A stretch of DNA of 64,000 nucleotides from Polyangiales bacterium. GTDB taxonomy: Bacteria > Myxococcota_A > Polyangia > Polyangiales > Polyangiaceae. The DNA lies in NCBI GenBank assembly GCA_038231275.1, contig JBBRLQ010000018.1, positions 32,001 to 96,000 of the forward strand. Direction: 5' to 3'. Position 1 is the first letter of the stretch. Every line of letters starts with the position of its first letter. Positions 33,067 through 43,816 of the stretch are shown one piece after another. The translations under genes were made by a program, and so were the position numbers. Below the pieces are notes generated by a model that worked only from the letters and a program-made list of their open reading frames with translations, had not been told where the DNA came from and searched no databases.

Positions 33067-33087
33067 CGCGCATCGACCCGCTCGGCT

Positions 33088-33411
33088 TCAGGCGAGCAGC
33101 TTGAGCAGGGTTTCTTTGTTCGTCACGCCGACGTGCTGGCCGGCCTTCTGGCCCGCCTTGAAGATGATGACCGTCGGAACGCCGCGGATCCCATAGCGTT
33201 GCGTGACGCCGGGCGCGTCGTCGATGTCGAGCTTGCCGACCTTGAACTTGCCGACGTTCTCGTCGGCGATCTTCTCGACGATGGGAGACAACATCTTGCA
33301 GGGGCCACACCACGTCGCCGTGAAGTCGACGAGGACGGGGACTTGCGACTCGAGGACCTCCTTGTCGAAGTTGCCGTCTGTGAGCTCGATCACGTTCTTG
33401 CTGGCCGCCAT
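33088..33411 (-). CDS. trxA: Thioredoxin
   Basis: VLVDFTATWCGPC, YGIRGVPT; AGGAG SD. Confidence 0.96.
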   Translation of the reverse strand: MAASKNVIELTDGNFDKEVLESQVPVLVDFTATWCGPCKMLSPIVEKIADENVGKFKVGKLDIDDAPGVTQRYGIRGVPTVIIFKAGQKAGQHVGVTNKETLLKLLA

Positions 33412-35641: not shown

Positions 35642-36536
35642 GAGCGCCTCGACGAACGTGCGTCAGCAGGCGGGCGCCCGCAAGACGTTCGATGCCATCT
35701 GTGTGGGAGAGGCGGCGTGGAAGCTCGTCGGCGACGGCGCCACGGGTCTTCGCCTTCGTCCGAGCAGCGGCGCGGTCAACATCGCACTCCACTTGTGCAA
35801 GGAGGGCATGCGCGTGGGGCTCTCGACGGTGCTCGTCGACGATGCGAACGGGCGCGCGGCCATGGCGCGGGTTGCGGCGGCGGGCGTCGACGTCACGGGC
35901 GTAACGTTCACCCGGCCGCGCGCGGGGCTGGTGGTCGTGGACGCGCGCGGCGAGGCGAACCCACTCGCCGCGGAGCTCGAGGCGACGCCGGCGTTCGACG
36001 TCCCGCCCGCATGGTCGTCGCAGGTGGTCGTGTTGTCGGGCCTCTCGCCCGTCGTGGCGCACGCGGCCGCGCTCTGCAAGGCGGCGCGACGCGCGCGTCG
36101 TGACGGATCGGTCGTCCTCCTCGACTTCAACGCCGCCCTCCACGCGTGGGCAGGGCGTGACGCGCGCACCATTCGCATGGTGCTCCGCAAGGTCGACGTC
36201 GCGCGATGCAGCGTCGCGGATCTCGCCGTTCTCGGCATGTCCGCCGACGAGGCGAGCGCGGCGTTGCGGCCCACGGCGACATTGGTCGTCGGCGAGCCCG
36301 GCGGACGCGTGAGCGCGGTCGGGCCGTTCGGCGCCGTCGTCTTCGCTCCGCCCGGGTCGGCTCACGAAGGCGCGGCCGCGCGGCCCGGCGCTGGCGACGC
36401 GCTCACGGCGTCGATTTGCCATGAGCTCACCGCCCGCCGCGACTCCGGTGAGAGCGTGGAGGCTCTTTGGGAACGCGCGCTGCGCCGCGGCAACGAGCTC
36501 GGCCGTCGCGCCGCCGCGCTACCTCGAACCCCTTAG
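35640..36536 (+). CDS. PfkB family carbohydrate kinase
   Basis: ICVGEA, GAVNIA, LLDFN, GAGDA; TATACT 6 nt before ATG. Confidence 0.8.
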   Translation: MSASTNVRQQAGARKTFDAICVGEAAWKLVGDGATGLRLRPSSGAVNIALHLCKEGMRVGLSTVLVDDANGRAAMARVAAAGVDVTGVTFTRPRAGLVVVDARGEANPLAAELEATPAFDVPPAWSSQVVVLSGLSPVVAHAAALCKAARRARRDGSVVLLDFNAALHAWAGRDARTIRMVLRKVDVARCSVADLAVLGMSADEASAALRPTATLVVGEPGGRVSAVGPFGAVVFAPPGSAHEGAAARPGAGDALTASICHELTARRDSGESVEALWERALRRGNELGRRAAALPRTP

Positions 36537-36553
36537 CCGGCTATGCTTCGGTC

Positions 36554-37828
36554 GTGGGCTTCGCCGCAGCGCGCATTGGAATCGGGACGACGGTCCTGCT
36601 GCTCGCATGCTCGACCTCCTCGGCACCGAAGGCCGCGGCAGATCCCGACGCAGGCGCCGACGCGAGCGTGCGCGATGCGGGTCCAGACGGGGGCGGCACG
36701 CTCGACGTCGCGATGTCGGCCGCGGTGAAATCCGGCGACGACTTCTACCACTGCAAGTACGTGACGCTCCCGCGCGCCGCTTCGGGGGCCACGACGTTCT
36801 TCGTTGCCGCCTCGCACACGTACGGGGGTTGCCATCACATCCTCGTCTTTCGCACGAACCTCACGGCGATCCCGGCGGGCCAGGAAGGCGAGCGAGATTG
36901 CTTCGCGCCCGACGACGTGATGCCCCACGCGCGCGCGCAAATTTACGGGTCCGAGCTGCGCGTCGACTCGTTCACGATGCCCGACGGTGTCGGGCTGCCG
37001 CTTGCAGATGGTGAGGTGCTTCTCGTGCAAGTGCACTACCTCAACGCGGCGGCTACGTCGTCGGATGCGAACGCGTCGCTCACGCTTCGCACGGCGACCG
37101 TCGGGGTCACTCAGCGCGCCGGCGCGTTCTATTTCGCCGACCCGTTCATCGACGTCGGTGTTGGCCAACGGGGTCAAGCGTCGATGCGTTGCGTGATCCC
37201 GCAAGACGCCACGTTGCTCACGGTTGCGGGTACCGCGCACGCCCGCGCGACCGATTTCTCGGCGTTCCTCGATCCGGCCGGGGCTCCACCCTCGACCTCT
37301 CCGCTTTACCGCGCGCCCGGCACGGCCAACCCACTTCCGCTGCGGACGAGCAAGGCCGTCGCGGGCGGGGAGCACGTCCGCTTCTCGTGCACGTTCGACA
37401 ACGCGCGCGGCACGACGGAGATCCTCGGCGGACCGCGCAACGACGCCGACGAAGCGTGCGCGCTCTCCGGTCTCTACACCCCGGCGCAAGGCGATGACGT
37501 CGACGCGTGCCGCGCCGCGCCCGACGGCTTCGGGACCGGCGCCGCGACCTGCGCACAAACGCGCGCGTGCGTCGACGCGTGCCCTGCGGCGAGCGCGCCT
37601 CCTCCCGATCTCGGGCTCGGGGACGGCGGCGCCGCCGATCCCTGCTGGCAGCGCTGCATGGTCGCGTCGTGCTCGGACGCGTCGCGGCTGCTCCTCACGC
37701 TTCGCGCGTGCGTCGCGGCGCGGTGCGCGTCCTCGTGCGCGGGCGGACCGAGCGCGCCGTGCACGACGTGCATCCAGTCGTCGTGCACCGCCGAGAGCAA
37801 CGCATGCGACGCCTACGCCTGCCCCTGA
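36554..37828 (+). CDS. Copper type II monooxygenase (PHM/DBH)-fold lipoprotein with Cys-rich tail
   Basis: Lipobox LLAC; HH, PDGVG, QVHYLN, C.FDN, DE.C; TATGCT 6 nt before GTG. Confidence 0.75.
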   Translation: MGFAAARIGIGTTVLLLACSTSSAPKAAADPDAGADASVRDAGPDGGGTLDVAMSAAVKSGDDFYHCKYVTLPRAASGATTFFVAASHTYGGCHHILVFRTNLTAIPAGQEGERDCFAPDDVMPHARAQIYGSELRVDSFTMPDGVGLPLADGEVLLVQVHYLNAAATSSDANASLTLRTATVGVTQRAGAFYFADPFIDVGVGQRGQASMRCVIPQDATLLTVAGTAHARATDFSAFLDPAGAPPSTSPLYRAPGTANPLPLRTSKAVAGGEHVRFSCTFDNARGTTEILGGPRNDADEACALSGLYTPAQGDDVDACRAAPDGFGTGAATCAQTRACVDACPAASAPPPDLGLGDGGAADPCWQRCMVASCSDASRLLLTLRACVAARCASSCAGGPSAPCTTCIQSSCTAESNACDAYACP

Positions 37829-39171
37829 TCCTCGCGAGCGTCCCCGTGCTCGCGGGCGTCGTCGTCGCGTGCGAGCGTGGAGGCGATCCGCCACGGCCCG
37901 ATCCGCCGATCGCGCCGTCCGCGCCGCCTCCCGCGAGCACGGCCGCCATCGATCCCGAGACGTGCCGCGGGTGCCACGAAGGGCACGTCACCGCGTGGTC
38001 CGGCAGCATGCACGCGTACGCGACCGACGATCCGGTGTTCCTCGCCATGGAAGCGCGCGGACAACGTGAGACGGGAGGCGCGCTCGGAAACTTCTGCGTC
38101 TCGTGCCATGCGCCGCTGGCGGTGGCGAACGCGCGCGGCGCCGCCGTCGATCCGAAGAGCCTCCCGCGAACCCTTCGCGGCGTGACGTGCTTCTTCTGCC
38201 ACTCGGTGGACGCGACGCTCGATCTCCATGACGGCGCGCTTCGCCTCGCGGGCGATGGCGCGTTCCGTGGCGCGATCACCGATCCTGTACCTTCGAGCGC
38301 GCACGCGTCCATGTATTCGCCCATGCACGATCGCGCGCGCCCCGAGGCGGCGGCGACCTGCGGCGCGTGCCACGACGTGCGTATGCCGAGCGGCGCCGAT
38401 CTCGAGCGAACGTACGCCGAGTGGGCGACGACGGTGTTCGCGCAAGCCACGCCAGAGGCGAAGACGTGCGGGGGCTGCCACATGCCCGGCAGCCAAGGCG
38501 CCGCGGCCTCCGTCGCGGCCTCGCCGGTCCGGACGGTGCACGATCACACGATGGCGGCGCTCGACGTCCCGCTCGGATCATTCCCCGAGACGGCGCCGCA
38601 GCGGAAGGCGGTGCAGCTCGCGCTCGACTCGGCGCTCACGGCGAAGCTCTGCGTCATCGCGCCCGGCGACGTCCAGATCACCCTAGAAAATAGCCGGATC
38701 GGCCACGCGTGGCCAACCGGCGCCACGCACGACCGCCGCGCGTGGGTGGAGCTGCGAGCGTTCGCCGGCGGCGCCGAGGTGTGGTCGCGCGGAGCCGCCG
38801 CGAACGATCTGCCGCCGGATCCTCGGACCGAGCCCGACGCGATCCTCCTCGGCGGTACCCTCTTCGACGCGCACGCCGCTCCCGTGAAATTCTTGTGGCA
38901 AGCCGCCTCGACACGCACGGTCGTCCTTGCCCCGAAGACGTCGGACGCGCCTGGCGGCACGCATCCCCTCGTGACGCGCTACGCGCCGCCGGCGAACGTC
39001 GATCGCGTGACGATGCGCGTTCGGGTGACGCCGTTCGCGCCGGAGGTGCTGGACGATCTCGTCGCGAGCGGCGATCTCGCGGCGTCCGTGCGTGGAAACG
39101 TGCCGACGTTCTCGCTGGCCTCGACGACGCTCGAGTGGACGAAGGATCGCGGCTACGCGTGCGTGCCGTGA
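37804..39171 (+). CDS. Pentaheme c-type cytochrome lipoprotein
   Basis: Lipobox VVAC; CRGCH, CVSCH, CFFCH, CGACH, CGGCH; W..SMHA, GH.WPTG. Confidence 0.9.
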   Translation: MRRLRLPLILASVPVLAGVVVACERGGDPPRPDPPIAPSAPPPASTAAIDPETCRGCHEGHVTAWSGSMHAYATDDPVFLAMEARGQRETGGALGNFCVSCHAPLAVANARGAAVDPKSLPRTLRGVTCFFCHSVDATLDLHDGALRLAGDGAFRGAITDPVPSSAHASMYSPMHDRARPEAAATCGACHDVRMPSGADLERTYAEWATTVFAQATPEAKTCGGCHMPGSQGAAASVAASPVRTVHDHTMAALDVPLGSFPETAPQRKAVQLALDSALTAKLCVIAPGDVQITLENSRIGHAWPTGATHDRRAWVELRAFAGGAEVWSRGAAANDLPPDPRTEPDAILLGGTLFDAHAAPVKFLWQAASTRTVVLAPKTSDAPGGTHPLVTRYAPPANVDRVTMRVRVTPFAPEVLDDLVASGDLAASVRGNVPTFSLASTTLEWTKDRGYACVP

Positions 39172-39178
39172 AGGTCGC

Positions 39179-40021
39179 TCACTGCTTCATCGTGATCGTG
39201 ATCGGCGCGCCCGCGACGGGACCGCTCACGATGGCGTCGTTCGCATATTTCGCCCAGTAGATGCGCACGGTCACCGGTCCCTGCAAGCTCGCGAGCGTGC
39301 TCCACGACACCGGATCGGGCGCCCAGAACGTCGTTGCGACCATCGCGCGCATCACTTCGGTGCAGCCTTGGGTGAACACGAGGACGTAGCCGTCGCCGCC
39401 GAGTGGCGTGAGCGCGTGCGCTTCGGGCAGCGCGAGATCGACGAGGTCCAGCACCGGCGAGCGTCGCGCCTGCGCTCCCTTGTTCCACGCGAAAATGGAC
39501 CACTCGTCGGCGGTGAGCGCGGTGCCGTCGGCAGGCTCGACGAAGACGGGCGCGCGGCCGCTCGCGCCATAGGAAACCGTGCCGCCGGTCTGCGCGTCGA
39601 CGAATGCGGCGCACGCGGCGCTCGTGAACGACACGTCGCCCGGCCCAACCGGCCCACAAGGATTTACTGCCGCGTCTCCGCCGTCGCCGCTCGCGCCTGC
39701 GTCGCCGCTCGCGCCCGCGTCGAGGTGCTTCGGATCGCACGCAAGCGACGGGAAGAAGACGGCGCGCGGATCGCTCCCGTCGCACGCTGCGCGAAGGTTC
39801 GCGCGGAGCGGGCAGCCTCCGCCGTCGTCGGTCGCGCCGTCCGGTCCTGGTCCGCCGTCGCCGACGGTCACGTCCGCGGCCTGCACGTCTCGCCCCGCGT
39901 CGTCGGCGGCGTTCGTGGACGAAGTGCTGCAGCTCGCGACCAGCACCGGGAGGCCCCACGCGAGCCCGGCCCCGAGGATCGTGCCGCGCGCCACACTCCG
40001 CCCGTTCATCCCTGTACTCAT
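39179..40021 (-). CDS. Hypothetical lipoprotein
   Basis: Lipobox VASC, DAG-rich linkers, GC3 bias; start 40021 or 40009. Confidence 0.75.
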   Translation of the reverse strand: MSTGMNGRSVARGTILGAGLAWGLPVLVASCSTSSTNAADDAGRDVQAADVTVGDGGPGPDGATDDGGGCPLRANLRAACDGSDPRAVFFPSLACDPKHLDAGASGDAGASGDGGDAAVNPCGPVGPGDVSFTSAACAAFVDAQTGGTVSYGASGRAPVFVEPADGTALTADEWSIFAWNKGAQARRSPVLDLVDLALPEAHALTPLGGDGYVLVFTQGCTEVMRAMVATTFWAPDPVSWSTLASLQGPVTVRIYWAKYANDAIVSGPVAGAPITITMKQ

Positions 40022-40272: not shown

Positions 40273-40818
40273 TCACGTCGTCATGCACGCGCGCAGCGAG
40301 GCCTTTGCGCGATGCAGGAGCACGGCGACGTGGCCCGCCGAGATCCCGAGCGCGCGCGCGACGTCCTCGCCCGGCTGCTCCTCGAGCATGCGCAGTGTCA
40401 CGACCGCGCGCTGGATGGCGCACAGCTCCTCCACGCACAACCGGAGCCGGACGTGCTCCTCCGCGCGAACGAGGAGCGCCTCGGCCACCGGCGCGTCCAC
40501 ATCGGCGAGCGCGTCGACGAGCGGCTCGTGCGGACGCGCCCGGTCGTGGCGACGTCGCCGGTTTCGCGCGGCGTTCCGCACCATGCCGGCGAGGACGCTC
40601 GCCTGCTCGACGGCGTCCCCGGGCAGCCGTCCATTCCGCGCGGCGTCGAGCCACGTGCACAGCGCCTCTTGCACGCAGTCGACCGCGTCTTCTGGAGCGA
40701 GCCCCTCCGCGCGCGCCAAGGCCGCGAGCCCCCCACGCTCACGTCGCGCGAGGTGGGAGAGTCGCCCCAGGAGCTCGTCGTCGTCGTCGGTCGCGCTGTT
40801 CATCGTGGTGGTCGTCAC
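40273..40818 (-). CDS. ECF sigma-70 family factor
   Basis: Region 2 (EDAVDCVQEA, MVRNAARN), region 4 (QRAVVTLR, EDVARALGIS..HVAVLLHRAK). Confidence 0.9.
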   Translation of the reverse strand: MTTTTMNSATDDDDELLGRLSHLARRERGGLAALARAEGLAPEDAVDCVQEALCTWLDAARNGRLPGDAVEQASVLAGMVRNAARNRRRRHDRARPHEPLVDALADVDAPVAEALLVRAEEHVRLRLCVEELCAIQRAVVTLRMLEEQPGEDVARALGISAGHVAVLLHRAKASLRACMTT

Positions 40819-40825
40819 GGGAGCT

Positions 40826-40852
40826 CAGGTCTCGAGCGGGCCTAACATTACG
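40826..40852 (-). promoter_or_regulatory. Candidate ECF promoter of the sigma gene
   Basis: Minus strand CGTAAT-GTT-AGG-CCCGCT-CGAGACCTG, 7 nt before GTG 40818. Confidence 0.7.
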
Positions 40853-40872
40853 AACGTTGTCACACGCGCTCG

Positions 40873-40899
40873 CGTAATTCGAGGACCCGGCGACACCTG
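40873..40899 (+). promoter_or_regulatory. Candidate ECF promoter of the thioredoxin gene
   Basis: CGTAAT-TCG-AGG-ACCCGG-CGACACCTG, 7 nt before ATG 40907; 19/27 identical to the divergent copy. Confidence 0.7.
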
Positions 40900-40906
40900 T
40901 CCCGTC

Positions 40907-41242
40907 ATGAAGAACCTCCCGTCCGTCACCGAGGCCTCGTTCGCCGCCGAGGTCCTCGCCTCATCCGTACCGGTCCTCGTGGATTTCACGGCCGCGTGGT
41001 GCGCGCCCTGCCGCGCCCTCGCGCCGATCCTCGAGCGCATCGCCGCCGAGGCGGAGTCTCGCCTGAAGGTCGTCACGGTCGACGGCGACGAAGAGAGCGG
41101 CCTCGCGTCCCGTTACGGCGTGCGCGGCTTCCCCACGATCCTCGCGTTCTCCGGCGGCAAGGAGGTCGGACGTCAAGTTGGCGTCGCGAACACGGAGAAG
41201 CTCCTCGCGCTCCTCGAAGGTCAGCGCGCGGTCGCGCCGTAA
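40907..41242 (+). CDS. Thioredoxin (WCAPC)
   Basis: VLVDFTAAWCAPC, YGVRGFPT. Confidence 0.93.
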   Translation: MKNLPSVTEASFAAEVLASSVPVLVDFTAAWCAPCRALAPILERIAAEAESRLKVVTVDGDEESGLASRYGVRGFPTILAFSGGKEVGRQVGVANTEKLLALLEGQRAVAP

Positions 41243-42138
41243 AATCGGACGGTCGTGCGCGTCACGAGCGCCCCGCGCGCGGTGGCGACGTCAATCGTGA
41301 GGACGTTGCCCTCGCAGGTCAGCCCGTAGAGCGTCGAACCGAACGCGGCGAGGCCGTAGACGCACGCGAACCCGATGGGGCCGAGCGTCTTCGCGGCGCC
41401 CGTCGTCCGATCGAACTCCACCAGCGCGTCGCCTCCCGACGCCGCGCGGGCCGTCGCGAGCAGCCGCCCTTGGTAGAACGCGAGGTCTCCGCTCGACGTG
41501 AGGCCCAATGGAAACGCGGCGAACGGAGTCGACACGCCGGTCGCGAGATCGATCGTCGCGACCTGAGAGCTCCCGGCGCCGTACAGCGTGCCCTCCGGCG
41601 AGACATCGAGCGCGTTCATGGGATCCGGCCGCGGCGCGATGACGGTCAACGCCCCCGTCGTCGCGTCGACGCGCACGAAATCGGAGAACGTCACGCCGTA
41701 CACCGTGCGATCGGGCGCGAGCGCGAGATCGTCGAGCGCCGGCGACGTCGGGCCGAGCACGCGCAGCGCCCCCGAAGGCAGCTTGACCTCGTAGAGTGTG
41801 TCGGCGCTCGACGCCAGCGCGCGCGCCTGACATCCGAGACCGGGATCGCACCCGTAGCTCAGCGGGCACTGCCCATCGTCCGGCGCGTGCGCGCACACGC
41901 GCGTGTCGCACGTGTCCTTCGTGCACGCGATCCCATCCGTGCATTCTGCATTCGTCCGGCACGGCTGCGGCGGCGGCGGCGCATCGACCCGCGCATCGCT
42001 CCCACCGTCCCGCGAACGCGCCGCGTCGCGTCCCGCGTCCACGGGCCGCACCCCCTCCGTCTCCTCCTCGACGAGGAGCGCAGTCCGCGACCCGCACCCG
42101 AGGAGCAGCGCGGCGAGAAGGACGGCACGGCGACGCAT
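41221..42138 (-). CDS. Lipoprotein with Cys-rich repeat and beta-propeller domain
   Basis: Lipobox LLGC; CTDGIACTKDTC repeat; DLA....LYG / SSGDLAF blades. Confidence 0.8.
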   Translation of the reverse strand: MRRRAVLLAALLLGCGSRTALLVEEETEGVRPVDAGRDAARSRDGGSDARVDAPPPPQPCRTNAECTDGIACTKDTCDTRVCAHAPDDGQCPLSYGCDPGLGCQARALASSADTLYEVKLPSGALRVLGPTSPALDDLALAPDRTVYGVTFSDFVRVDATTGALTVIAPRPDPMNALDVSPEGTLYGAGSSQVATIDLATGVSTPFAAFPLGLTSSGDLAFYQGRLLATARAASGGDALVEFDRTTGAAKTLGPIGFACVYGLAAFGSTLYGLTCEGNVLTIDVATARGALVTRTTVRFYGATAR

Positions 42139-42238: not shown

Positions 42239-43816
42239 TCAGTCCGGCGTGTCGGTCGGCCCCGCGGGTCGAGGGGACGAGGGACGCGCGGATGAGGAGG
42301 AGGGCGGAGAGGGCCGCCGCACGCCCTTCGGAGTCGGCGTCGGCGTCGGAGTCGGCGTCGGCGTCGGAGTCGGCGTCGGAGTCGGCGTCGGGGTCGGGGT
42401 CGGGGTCGGCGTCGGCGTCGGGGTCGAGGTCGGGGTCGGGGTCGGGGTCGAGGTCGGGGTCGGGGTCGAGGTCGAGGTCGCGCCGCTCCTCCGGGTCATC
42501 ACTATCGCCGCCGCCCCGATCGCCAGCGCCGCAAGGGCCACCAGCGCGATCAGAAGACCGCTACGCCCTGGGGCAGAAGCGACGACGAGCGCGGGCGTCG
42601 GTGTCGGCGTCGCGGTGATCGGCGCCGCCACGCCACGCGTCGTCGCAAGGGGGCTCGTCGGATTCGAACGCGGCGGAGCCGGAGCGGCCGGGGCCATGCG
42701 GCGCACGCGATCCGCGAACGTCAGCGCGTGCGGTGGCGCGAAGGGAGCGAGGGCATCGACGAGCTCGCCGAGGCTCGCATATCGCTCGGAACGCTCCTTT
42801 TCCAGGCATTTCAGGACGAGCGCGTCGAGCTCTGGCGGGATCTCCGCGCGGAAGGACGAAGGCGTCGCGGGAGTCGCGGTGGCGATCGCGACCGACAGCG
42901 CGGAGATGATCCGCGCGGGGAAGGGAAGCCGGCCGGCGAGCAGCTGGTAGAGGATGACGCCGAGCGACCAGATGTCGGTGCGCTCGTCGACGTCCTTGCT
43001 GTCCTTGATCTGCTCCGGCGACATGAACAGCGGCGAGCCCACGATCGCCTGCGTCGTCGTCAAGCTCAGGTCGCCGCCGACGGCATCGCGGTGGAGCAGC
43101 TTCGAGATCCCGAAATCGAGCACCTTCACGAGCGACGTGCCGTCCGCGCGCTTCACGAGGAAGAGGTTCGCCGGTTTGAGATCGCGGTGAACGACGCCGG
43201 CCGCGTGCGCCTCGGCGAGGCCCGCGCACGCTTGCAGCACGTAGCTGACGGCGTCCGCGATCGGCACGTCGCCCGCGCGCACGAGGACGGCGAGATCGTG
43301 CCCCGTCAGGTACTCCATCACGAGGTACGGCAAGCCGTTCGGCAGGCGCCCGACGTCGAAGACGCGCACCACGTTCTCGCTCGTGAGGCGCGCGCACGTC
43401 TGCGCTTCGCGGAGGAAGCGCGCCATCGCGTCGGCCTCGCCGCGGAAGAGGACCTTGATCGCGACGCGGTGCCCGAGCTCCATGTGACGTGCCGCGAAGA
43501 CCGCGCCCATGCCGCCCTTGCCGATCGACTCCTCGAGCATGTACTTGCCGGCGATGCTCTGGCCGACGGTCGGAAGACCGAGCGCCGCCGCGACACCTGG
43601 CGCGAGCTGGACGTCGGTGCGTTCGCCGACTGACCCGACGCCGGACGAGGCGGCGTGCGCGGCGTCGGCGAGTCGGACGCCGCAGTTGAAGCATCCCGCG
43701 ACGTGCGCTTCGATCTCCTTCGCGCGCGACCCTTCGAGCTTTCCCGATGCGAACGCGGCGAGCGTCGGCTCGTCGAGGCACGCGGGGTCGCGATCGGTCG
43801 GCGAAGGGGTCCCCAC
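42239..43816 (-). CDS. Membrane Ser/Thr kinase with N-terminal zf-HC2-like zinc finger and (PT)n tail
   Basis: HVAGCFNC; GKGGMGAV, VAIK, HRDLKPAN, DFG, FMSPE; TM; PT repeats. Confidence 0.92.
   Translation of the reverse strand: MGTPSPTDRDPACLDEPTLAAFASGKLEGSRAKEIEAHVAGCFNCGVRLADAAHAASSGVGSVGERTDVQLAPGVAAALGLPTVGQSIAGKYMLEESIGKGGMGAVFAARHMELGHRVAIKVLFRGEADAMARFLREAQTCARLTSENVVRVFDVGRLPNGLPYLVMEYLTGHDLAVLVRAGDVPIADAVSYVLQACAGLAEAHAAGVVHRDLKPANLFLVKRADGTSLVKVLDFGISKLLHRDAVGGDLSLTTTQAIVGSPLFMSPEQIKDSKDVDERTDIWSLGVILYQLLAGRLPFPARIISALSVAIATATPATPSSFRAEIPPELDALVLKCLEKERSERYASLGELVDALAPFAPPHALTFADRVRRMAPAAPAPPRSNPTSPLATTRGVAAPITATPTPTPALVVASAPGRSGLLIALVALAALAIGAAAIVMTRRSGATSTSTPTPTSTPTPTPTSTPTPTPTPTPTPTPTPTPTPTPTPTPTPTPTPKGVRRPSPPSSSSARPSSPRPAGPTDTPD
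42331..42480. repeat. Coding 6-bp tandem repeat (Pro/Ser-Thr linker)
   Basis: (gtcggc/gtcgga/gtcggg/gtcgag)n encoding TSTPTPTP... Confidence 0.9.

Follow-up and report, generated by a model that had tools for sequence, protein, structure and literature searches.

An extracytoplasmic function (ECF) sigma factor gene and a thioredoxin gene that diverge from an 88-nt spacer, each behind one of two mirrored promoter-like boxes, were analyzed in a 64,000-nucleotide stretch of the genome of a Polyangiales bacterium (GenBank assembly GCA_038231275.1, contig JBBRLQ010000018.1, positions 32,001 to 96,000), referred to here as the window. Comparison of this locus with its relatives makes it very probable that the two genes constitute an autoregulated sigma/thioredoxin module operating on these promoters. 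A longer chain, in which such a module produces leaderless transcripts, the sigma factor is itself the thiol sensor and the thioredoxin resets it, would complete the circuit; judged from sequence, we regard this whole chain as an even call.

The sigma factor, the thioredoxin and the boxes between them

The sigma protein is an ECF (group 4) sigma-70 factor that consists of sigma-2 and sigma-4 only, within approximately 170 to 200 amino acids. It matches TIGR02937 with 53.4 bits (cut-off 42.9) and Sigma70_r4_2 with 40.2 bits, and its match to Sigma70_r2 (17.6 bits) lies under the cut-off of 24. The fold of the AlphaFold model is an ordinary ECF one, and the sigma-2 part of the model superimposes on region 2 of E. 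coli sigmaE with a Z score of 10.6 and a root-mean-square deviation of 2.1 over 81 residues. The acidic DAVD stretch of region 2.2 is kept (EDAVDCVQE), and the genome carries one copy of the sigma (E<=1e-5). There are two candidate start codons, GTG at 40818 (181 amino acids) and ATG at 40803 (176 amino acids). A preliminary description of the locus had chosen the GTG, and the public gene call starts at the ATG. Cysteines are numbered here in the 176-residue form; C123 and C173 are therefore C128 and C178 in the 181-residue form of that description.

The partner is a TrxA-type thioredoxin with a WCxPC active site, and it matches PF00085 with 91.0 bits and TIGR01068 with 97.1 bits (cut-off 96.8). 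A second thioredoxin, with a WCGPC active site, is encoded in the window at 33079-33399 on the minus strand; it is 50% identical to the sigma-linked protein and is likely the housekeeping TrxA. The partner had been described earlier as a WCAPC thioredoxin separate from trxA, and the presence of this second gene bears out the distinction.

The spacer holds the two boxes that the preliminary description had reported as inverted copies of each other, at 40826-40852 (minus strand) and 40873-40899 (plus strand). A count by hand confirmed that 19 of 27 positions are identical and that the internal spacing is the same. Each box ends 7 nt ahead of a start codon (GTG 40818 and ATG 40907), with no purine-rich Shine-Dalgarno sequence between, and in both cases the start codon begins 9 nt past the ACC of the box. 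The two GTAA elements are separated by 23 nt. The mirror symmetry also runs past the boxes into the first transcribed bases, at 40812-40822 and 40900-40910, where TCCCGT is present on both sides as an inverted repeat. No sigma-70-type promoter was found when one was sought in the spacer.

The boxes are rare in the genome. When the window was searched for GTAAT-N12-CGANACCT with at most one mismatch, 2 matches were found against 0.04 expected, and none of 100 shuffled sequences reached 2. A scan of the whole 9.28-Mb assembly (69% G+C, 94% complete), which had been proposed as a check of the earlier description, returned just these 2 copies of GTAAT-N12-CGANACCT, both in the spacer. With a weight matrix built without the window, the sigma-side box scored 30.1 bits and the next best site in the genome 18.3 bits. 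The weight-matrix scan revealed no further convincing regulon site in the genome, which, in an assembly that is 94% complete, suggests that the detectable regulon comprises the sigma and thioredoxin genes only. Matches to the core columns alone, such as one at C16:99184 (24.3 bits), were set aside, as a start codon at the distance seen in other loci is lacking.

Conservation of the boxes, the linkage and the cysteines

The same box was found on the sigma side and on the thioredoxin side of orthologous loci. Conservation of the motif in homologues had been proposed as a check in the preliminary description; it is conserved there in the form of mirrored bipartite, promoter-like boxes, and the distance between the boxes varies. 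Among 98 unique sigma-side and thioredoxin-side sites, GTAA, the G of CGA, and ACC are invariant. This invariance is partly forced by the search expression, which nevertheless permitted alternatives at invariant positions that never turned up. The distance from GTAA to GTAA ranges from 5 to 91 nt in the 19 metagenome loci that have both boxes. This variation fits two independent promoters, and a single palindromic operator was rejected on the same grounds.

The distance from a box to its gene is more regular on the thioredoxin side. Of 40 unique thioredoxin-side sites, 21 have a gap of 9 nt between ACC and the start codon and 2 have a gap of 10 nt; a second set of these sites has gaps of 21 to 24 nt. 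In distant loci the gap is 9 to 10 nt at 8 of 10 sites, and on the sigma side the gaps are scattered from 7 to 16 nt. If GTAAT is placed at approximately -33 to -29 and ACCT at approximately -12 to -9, a gap of 9 to 10 nt would put the transcription start at the start codon. These positions suggest that the thioredoxin mRNA is leaderless, and the conserved spacing fits the leaderless transcripts that had been put forward for the window. In Sorangium, the short conserved gap leads to the first ATG, and a GGAGG together with a second in-frame ATG follows a few codons downstream.

The occurrence of the box was also compared between genomes with and without the sigma. In two sigma-bearing genomes (G120 and G370), the sole match in the genome is located immediately upstream of the sigma gene; three others carry a GTAAG variant and hence have no match to the GTAAT pattern. 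In deeper-branching relatives, the box is found ahead of genes for a DUF417 membrane protein (198.5 bits), a CMD/AhpD-like protein (54.2 bits) and a 4HBT thioesterase (54.4 bits). In one genome (G215), it precedes a gene for a CPYC glutaredoxin (locus L113, 1199-1525, minus strand), which has its ATG 9 nt past ACC and is unlinked to either of the two sigma copies of that genome. As judged from sequence, these targets lean towards thiol-redox genes, with the exception of the thioesterase and with a redox link that is putative for DUF417. The DUF417 family presumably includes RclC, encoded in the reactive-chlorine operon of E. coli.

These observations bear on the possibility that the sigma is constitutively active once made, that its Cys pair is purely structural and that some other regulator or sigma reads the boxes, so that control would be transcriptional only. 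Some ECF sigmas are indeed governed solely at the level of transcription (PMC8999054). However, the box occurs almost only beside the sigma: five relatives without the sigma yielded 1 match, compared to 3 for a reversed-pattern control. Furthermore, the box and the DNA-binding segments of the sigma stay constant together down to approximately 41% identity, the distance between the boxes varies, and the targets lean towards redox genes. Purely transcriptional control is thus improbable.

Linkage of the two genes in homologues, another check proposed with the preliminary description, was followed in three sets of loci. First, a scan of reference genomes gave 15 loci, 7 from Sorangium and the rest from Polyangiaceae, Nannocystaceae and other myxobacterial metagenome-assembled genomes, and a divergent thioredoxin gene lies just upstream of the sigma gene in all 15. 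Second, in a sample of the phylum in which flanks of 1.5 kb were examined, an adjacent thioredoxin gene is present in 9 of the 15 loci from other genomes; 3 of the sigma carriers in this sample duplicate loci of the reference scan. Third, a metagenome scan, in which distant relatives are under-sampled for gene context, added 80 further loci. Of these loci, 50 extend 420 nt or more upstream of the sigma, and a thioredoxin gene is linked in 49 of the 50: it is divergent in 38, just downstream in the same orientation in 10, and upstream in the same orientation in 1. None is found in the remaining locus.

After 110 loci were collapsed at 90% sigma identity into 72 clusters, of which 63 are informative and 9 uninformative, a thioredoxin gene adjoins the sigma gene in 57 of the 63 (47 divergent, 9 as a sigma-thioredoxin operon and 1 in another arrangement). 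In a quick tree, the divergent form constitutes one clade of 72 rows (Shimodaira-Hasegawa-like approximate likelihood ratio test 99), and the operon form falls among the 19 rows of a sister group (support 86). The linkage has therefore been kept through a change of arrangement between two sister clades. The 16 loci compared have only two families of open reading frames in common, the sigma and the thioredoxin; the families that come next occur in just the 7 Sorangium loci. At one locus (L009, contig JANXMC010000763.1), the alignments of the sigma and the thioredoxin overlap on opposite strands without a spacer, unlike at every other locus; this overlap may be genuine or may reflect an artefact of assembly.

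Such tight linkage also raises the possibility that the thioredoxin is the regulatory partner of the sigma, acting like an anti-sigma factor by forming a stable or mixed-disulfide complex with it in one redox state. The two genes are co-inherited in both divergent and operon arrangements, and the active site has drifted from WCGPC: in 62 readable metagenome loci it is WCPPC in 25, WCAPC in 19, WCGPC in 14, WCSPC in 3 and WCTPC in 1. On the other hand, the usual thioredoxin invariants are all kept (W31, C32, P34, C35 and P76 do not vary among 21 partners compared), and there are deeper-branching relatives that lack an adjacent thioredoxin gene and have the box ahead of other redox genes. A role of the thioredoxin as the binding partner of the sigma therefore has little probability.

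The preliminary description had drawn attention to five cysteines in the sigma. All five are present, and only two of them, C123 and C173, are conserved across the family. Among the 120 closest homologues (58 to 100% identity), C123, C128 and C173 are found in every sequence, C43 in 115 and C49 in 108. Different results were obtained with representatives of 50%-identity clusters, of which 141 were found at E<=1e-10 and 80 rows of suitable length, the query included, were aligned. Residues are available at both columns for 73 representatives, and 68 of these carry both C123 and C173. C43 is found in 25 of 79 representatives; for C49 the count is 11 of 78, and for C128 it is 8 of 77. These three are specific to one clade. 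A fixed five-Cys metal site was ruled out, as the three occur independently of each other in these representatives. In a curated alignment of 58 sequences with 31 to 61% identity to the query, C123, R165 and C173 are the only invariant columns. Myxococcota is the commonest phylum among the distant sigma relatives in the protein atlas.

In the metagenome loci, 51 of the 80 sigmas have all five cysteines, 7 lack only C49, 21 have C123 and C173 alone of the five, and 1 is cut by a contig end. The sigmas with the pair alone of the five are not poor in Cys. All nine unique sigmas of the operon clade (L091, L094, L096, L098, L101, L105, L107, L109 and L111) lack C43, C49 and C128 and carry a CxC in a short N-terminal extension. 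In three others (L089, L099 and L100), C173 is followed four residues later by a further Cys, and one (L026) has an N-terminal CxxC. Linkage to the thioredoxin occurs in the five-Cys clade as well as in clades without C43, C49 and C128. The family-defining element is the sigma-4 pair C123/C173, and the auxiliary cysteines differ by clade.

The sigma sequence ends in RACMTT, three residues past C173, and in agreement with the earlier description it has no C-terminal extension. Positions 58-176 of the family profile align to residues 83-202 of 4nqw_A (E 1.1e-6, rank 18 among PDB sequences), and C123 and C173 occupy match states 124 and 174 of this profile; their pairing with the cysteines of SigK is derived from these alignment ranges. 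A direct phmmer search against the PDB gave weak sigma-4 matches, with SigK not among the alignments listed.

The anti-sigma question and the surrounding genes

The gene that comes next after the sigma, at position +1, differs between lineages and, judged by eye, none was recognized as an anti-sigma gene. In the sigma-thioredoxin operon clade, the thioredoxin gene comes directly after the sigma gene, with nothing between or behind them that the loci share, and in one clade without the thioredoxin a short-chain dehydrogenase gene lies upstream of the sigma gene. Neither an RskA-type +1 anti-sigma, as in ECF18 and ECF19, nor an RsrA/RshA-type one, as in ECF12, was found. The statement of the preliminary description that no anti-sigma gene lies beside the sigma can accordingly be extended to every locus examined. 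As the family shows no linkage to an anti-sigma gene, the most likely form of control is that the sigma itself acts as the thiol sensor.

The main rival of this reading, one that we consider unlikely while giving it more weight than the other two alternatives, is that the sigma is an ordinary anti-sigma-controlled ECF factor whose anti-sigma is encoded at a distance, for example by an orphan zinc-binding anti-sigma (ZAS) gene or by the Ser/Thr kinase gene listed in Table 1. The Cys pair would then tune the binding of the two proteins, and the thioredoxin would be a regulon member. Such an arrangement has precedents in the portions of the literature used here, as the same Cys pair modulates anti-sigma binding in SigK and ECF18, and there are subgroups with the anti-sigma encoded elsewhere, such as ECF19s4 (Casas-Pastor et al.). 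The kinase, moreover, has a weak match to zf-HC2, below the cut-off. However, the thioredoxin gene is the sole conserved neighbor, and the kinase gene and the gene next to it are missing at the other sigma loci, where some kinase is found nearby only in L010 and L027. The only RskA_C protein of the genome adjoins, and is paired with, another ECF sigma. Finally, regulon membership alone would leave unexplained the strong and repeated selection for adjacency of the thioredoxin gene.

Features of the locus and its surroundings are collected in Table 1. At the N-terminus of the kinase there is an HxxxCxxC motif, in a region (residues 5-31) that gives the zf-HC2 match (E 0.005, 17.4 bits; cut-off 22.2), and the C-terminal part is a long Thr-Pro repeat. 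The gene for the secreted-looking protein is convergent with the thioredoxin gene, and their 3' ends overlap by 22 nt. DUF4394 is described as a conserved neighbor of some ECF18 subgroups in the part of the supplement of Casas-Pastor et al. (2021) drawn on here; the DUF4394-like neighbor in the window is probably a coincidence, because it is missing from the other sigma loci. Upstream, at 36467-39171 on the plus strand, lie genes for a protein with a sub-threshold match to the N-domain of copper type II monooxygenases and for a 554-residue multihaem cytochrome with Cytochrome_C554 and MtrC/MtrF-like domains.

Table 1. Positions in the window of the sigma/thioredoxin locus, its boxes and cysteine codons, and neighboring genes
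Feature	Positions	Strand	Remarks
ECF sigma gene	40273-40818	-	TIGR02937 and Sigma70_r4_2 matches
Codon of C173	40285-40287	-	
Codon of C128	40420-40422	-	
Codon of C123	40435-40437	-	
Codon of C49	40657-40659	-	
Codon of C43	40675-40677	-	
Sigma-side promoter-like box	40827-40851	-	GTAAT 40847-40851, putative -35
Sigma-side putative extended -10	40827-40834	-	CGAGACCT
Thioredoxin-side promoter-like box	40874-40898	+	GTAAT 40874-40878, putative -35
Thioredoxin-side putative extended -10	40891-40898	+	CGACACCT
Thioredoxin gene	40907-41242	+	111 aa, WCAPC, divergent from sigma; PF00085, TIGR01068
Secreted-looking protein gene	41221-42138	-	305 aa; DUF4394 and DUF6923 matches, both sub-threshold
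Ser/Thr protein kinase gene	42239-43774	-	Pkinase 164.6 bits; 1.4 kb away
Putative lipoprotein gene	39179-40021	-	no family; follows the genes at 36467-39171

A candidate redox circuit and its known counterparts

The circuit that we propose for Polyangia-type myxobacteria would be a thiol-redox module of two genes, complete in itself. The promoters recognized by the sigma would have the consensus (T)GTAAT-N11-(C)TCGAnACCT, and two of them lie back to back in the spacer. One of them would drive the sigma gene, in positive autoregulation, and the other the dedicated thioredoxin gene. Transcription would start approximately 9 to 10 nt past ACC, at or next to the start codon, so that the thioredoxin mRNA and perhaps, in the window, the sigma mRNA would be leaderless. 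Of the invariant pair, one Cys is predicted to lie where helix 4.1 begins, and the second lies three residues from the C-terminus. Oxidation of this sigma-4 pair, with the auxiliary cysteines serving as a relay or as metal ligands, may change the activity of the sigma, and the co-induced thioredoxin would re-reduce the sigma and close the feedback loop. The favored polarity is that the oxidized form is the active one, which would result in homeostatic negative feedback.

What the comparison shows is the pairing of the two genes, the motif with its spacing to the start codons, the conservation of the Cys pair and the lack of a linked anti-sigma gene. From these we infer that the sigma reads the box, that the transcripts are leaderless, that the Cys pair acts as a redox switch without a partner protein and that the thioredoxin reduces the sigma. 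The most specific version of this proposal, a one-component redox-sensing sigma that combines the sigma-4 pair with interchangeable auxiliary cysteines, dispenses with an anti-sigma and is served by a dedicated CPPC/CAPC thioredoxin in a leaderless, self-resetting circuit of only two genes that soil Polyangia have retained, is put forward tentatively, at somewhat less than even likelihood.

Several points weigh against the proposed module. First, among the 401 genomes sampled from the phylum, no more than 15 carry the sigma (E<=1e-20, its own genome included), the thioredoxin gene is missing within 1.5 kb in 6 of the 15 loci from other genomes, and 6 of the 63 informative clusters have no adjacent thioredoxin gene with both flanks visible. 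Second, the thioredoxin-side box in the window is weak, with 8.0 bits for the full matrix and 16.6 bits for the core columns, values within the tail of the genome background; this box is supported by its position and by the orthologous loci and not by its matrix score. Third, 24 of the 68 pair-bearing representatives have no other Cys, which makes any relay role of auxiliary cysteines specific to particular clades. Fourth, the sigma-4 part of the AlphaFold model has predicted local distance difference test (pLDDT) values of approximately 70 to 80, and the fit of the 4nqw chain to C133 and C183 of native SigK depends on a 17-residue tag, which we presume from a native length of 187. Fifth, according to the passages of PMC7509140 and of the Casas-Pastor supplement on which we rely, the Cys pair of SigK and ECF18 acts together with the RskA anti-sigma.

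The potential significance of the proposed circuit is threefold. First, in nearly all characterized ECF sigmas the signal is perceived by another protein or by a domain added to the sigma, and a minimal sigma that senses thiol oxidation by its own sigma-4 would, if the proposal is true, represent a distinct mode of control. It would likewise separate a SigK-type Cys pair from its anti-sigma and thereby clarify the role of the pair. Second, the module is compact (approximately 1 kb), its promoter is rare and of high specificity, and it may work without a partner protein, features that would make it attractive as an orthogonal redox-responsive switch. Third, it would provide an annotation for a widespread and unnamed sigma/thioredoxin pair of soil myxobacterial genomes and metagenomes.

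Compared to other ECF systems, the sigma described here most resembles SigK in its cysteines. The sections of PMC7509140 used here describe a disulfide between Cys133 and Cys183 in sigma-4 of SigK, the redox state of which alters binding to the RskA anti-sigma; together with the corresponding part of the Casas-Pastor et al. (2021) supplement, they report such a pair in 94% of ECF18, 56% of ECF19 and less than 2% of other groups. In both proteins, as far as these sections describe SigK, the two cysteines are 50 residues apart and the second is near the C-terminus; by spacing and profile alignment, C123 and C173 lie at SigK-equivalent positions, as the Cys pair of ECF18 and ECF19 does. The sequence match to SigK is weak. 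ECF18 and ECF19 carry the gene for an RskA-type anti-sigma at +1, whereas the sigma described here has no linked gene of this kind. The promoters differ as well. Those predicted in the consulted part of the supplement are TGCATCTT / CGTA for ECF18 and ATC / CG or TG for ECF19 (Casas-Pastor et al. 2021), whereas the conserved box of the present family is GTAAT-N12-CGAnACCT. The classification text examined mentions no linkage to a thioredoxin for either ECF18 or ECF19.

Nor does the 2021 classification text, in the portion examined, contain a group that combines myxobacterial origin, the sigma-4 Cys pair and a thioredoxin. The supplement portion lists ECF210 as a group from Sorangium, Sandaracinus and Chondromyces (Casas-Pastor et al. 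2021), a group that is left undescribed in that text. A full-text search of the literature, with subscription papers outside its scope, yielded no description of a myxobacterial ECF sigma paired with a thioredoxin.

Among groups with other modes of control, the CorE and CorE2 factors of Myxococcus (ECF238, formerly ECF44) are similar in being myxobacterial ECF sigmas that have no anti-sigma and are controlled via their own cysteines. They differ in having a C-terminal extension that is rich in Cys and approximately 20 residues long and a CxC in the linker. The preliminary description had noted that both are absent here, and the protein indeed stops shortly after C173 and has no linker CxC. The promoters of ECF238 are reported not to be conserved, in contrast to the strongly conserved box of the present family. 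ECF43 sigmas are activated by a kinase, have lost the acidic DAED of sigma-2.2 and have a conserved adjacent Ser/Thr kinase gene (PMC8999054). The sigma described here differs on both counts, as the region 2.2 motif is kept and, apart from the window, only L010 and L027 have a kinase gene in the neighborhood of the sigma.

The logic of the proposed loop has closer counterparts. In the Streptomyces SigR-RsrA system (ECF12), as outlined in the part of the Casas-Pastor supplement drawn upon, an ECF sigma induces a thioredoxin and its own gene in a feedback loop that responds to thiol stress. The sensor there is the zinc anti-sigma RsrA encoded at +1, whereas in the present family there is no conserved +1 gene and the conserved cysteines are in the sigma. 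The SigR promoter, GGAAT-N18-GTT, is also unlike the box described here. In the OxyR-Grx1 and Yap1-Trx loops, a transcription factor that is oxidized at its thiols induces the reductase that switches the factor off. The circuit proposed here would follow the same loop logic, with the difference that OxyR and Yap1 are DNA-binding activators and the factor in the present module is a sigma subunit of RNA polymerase.

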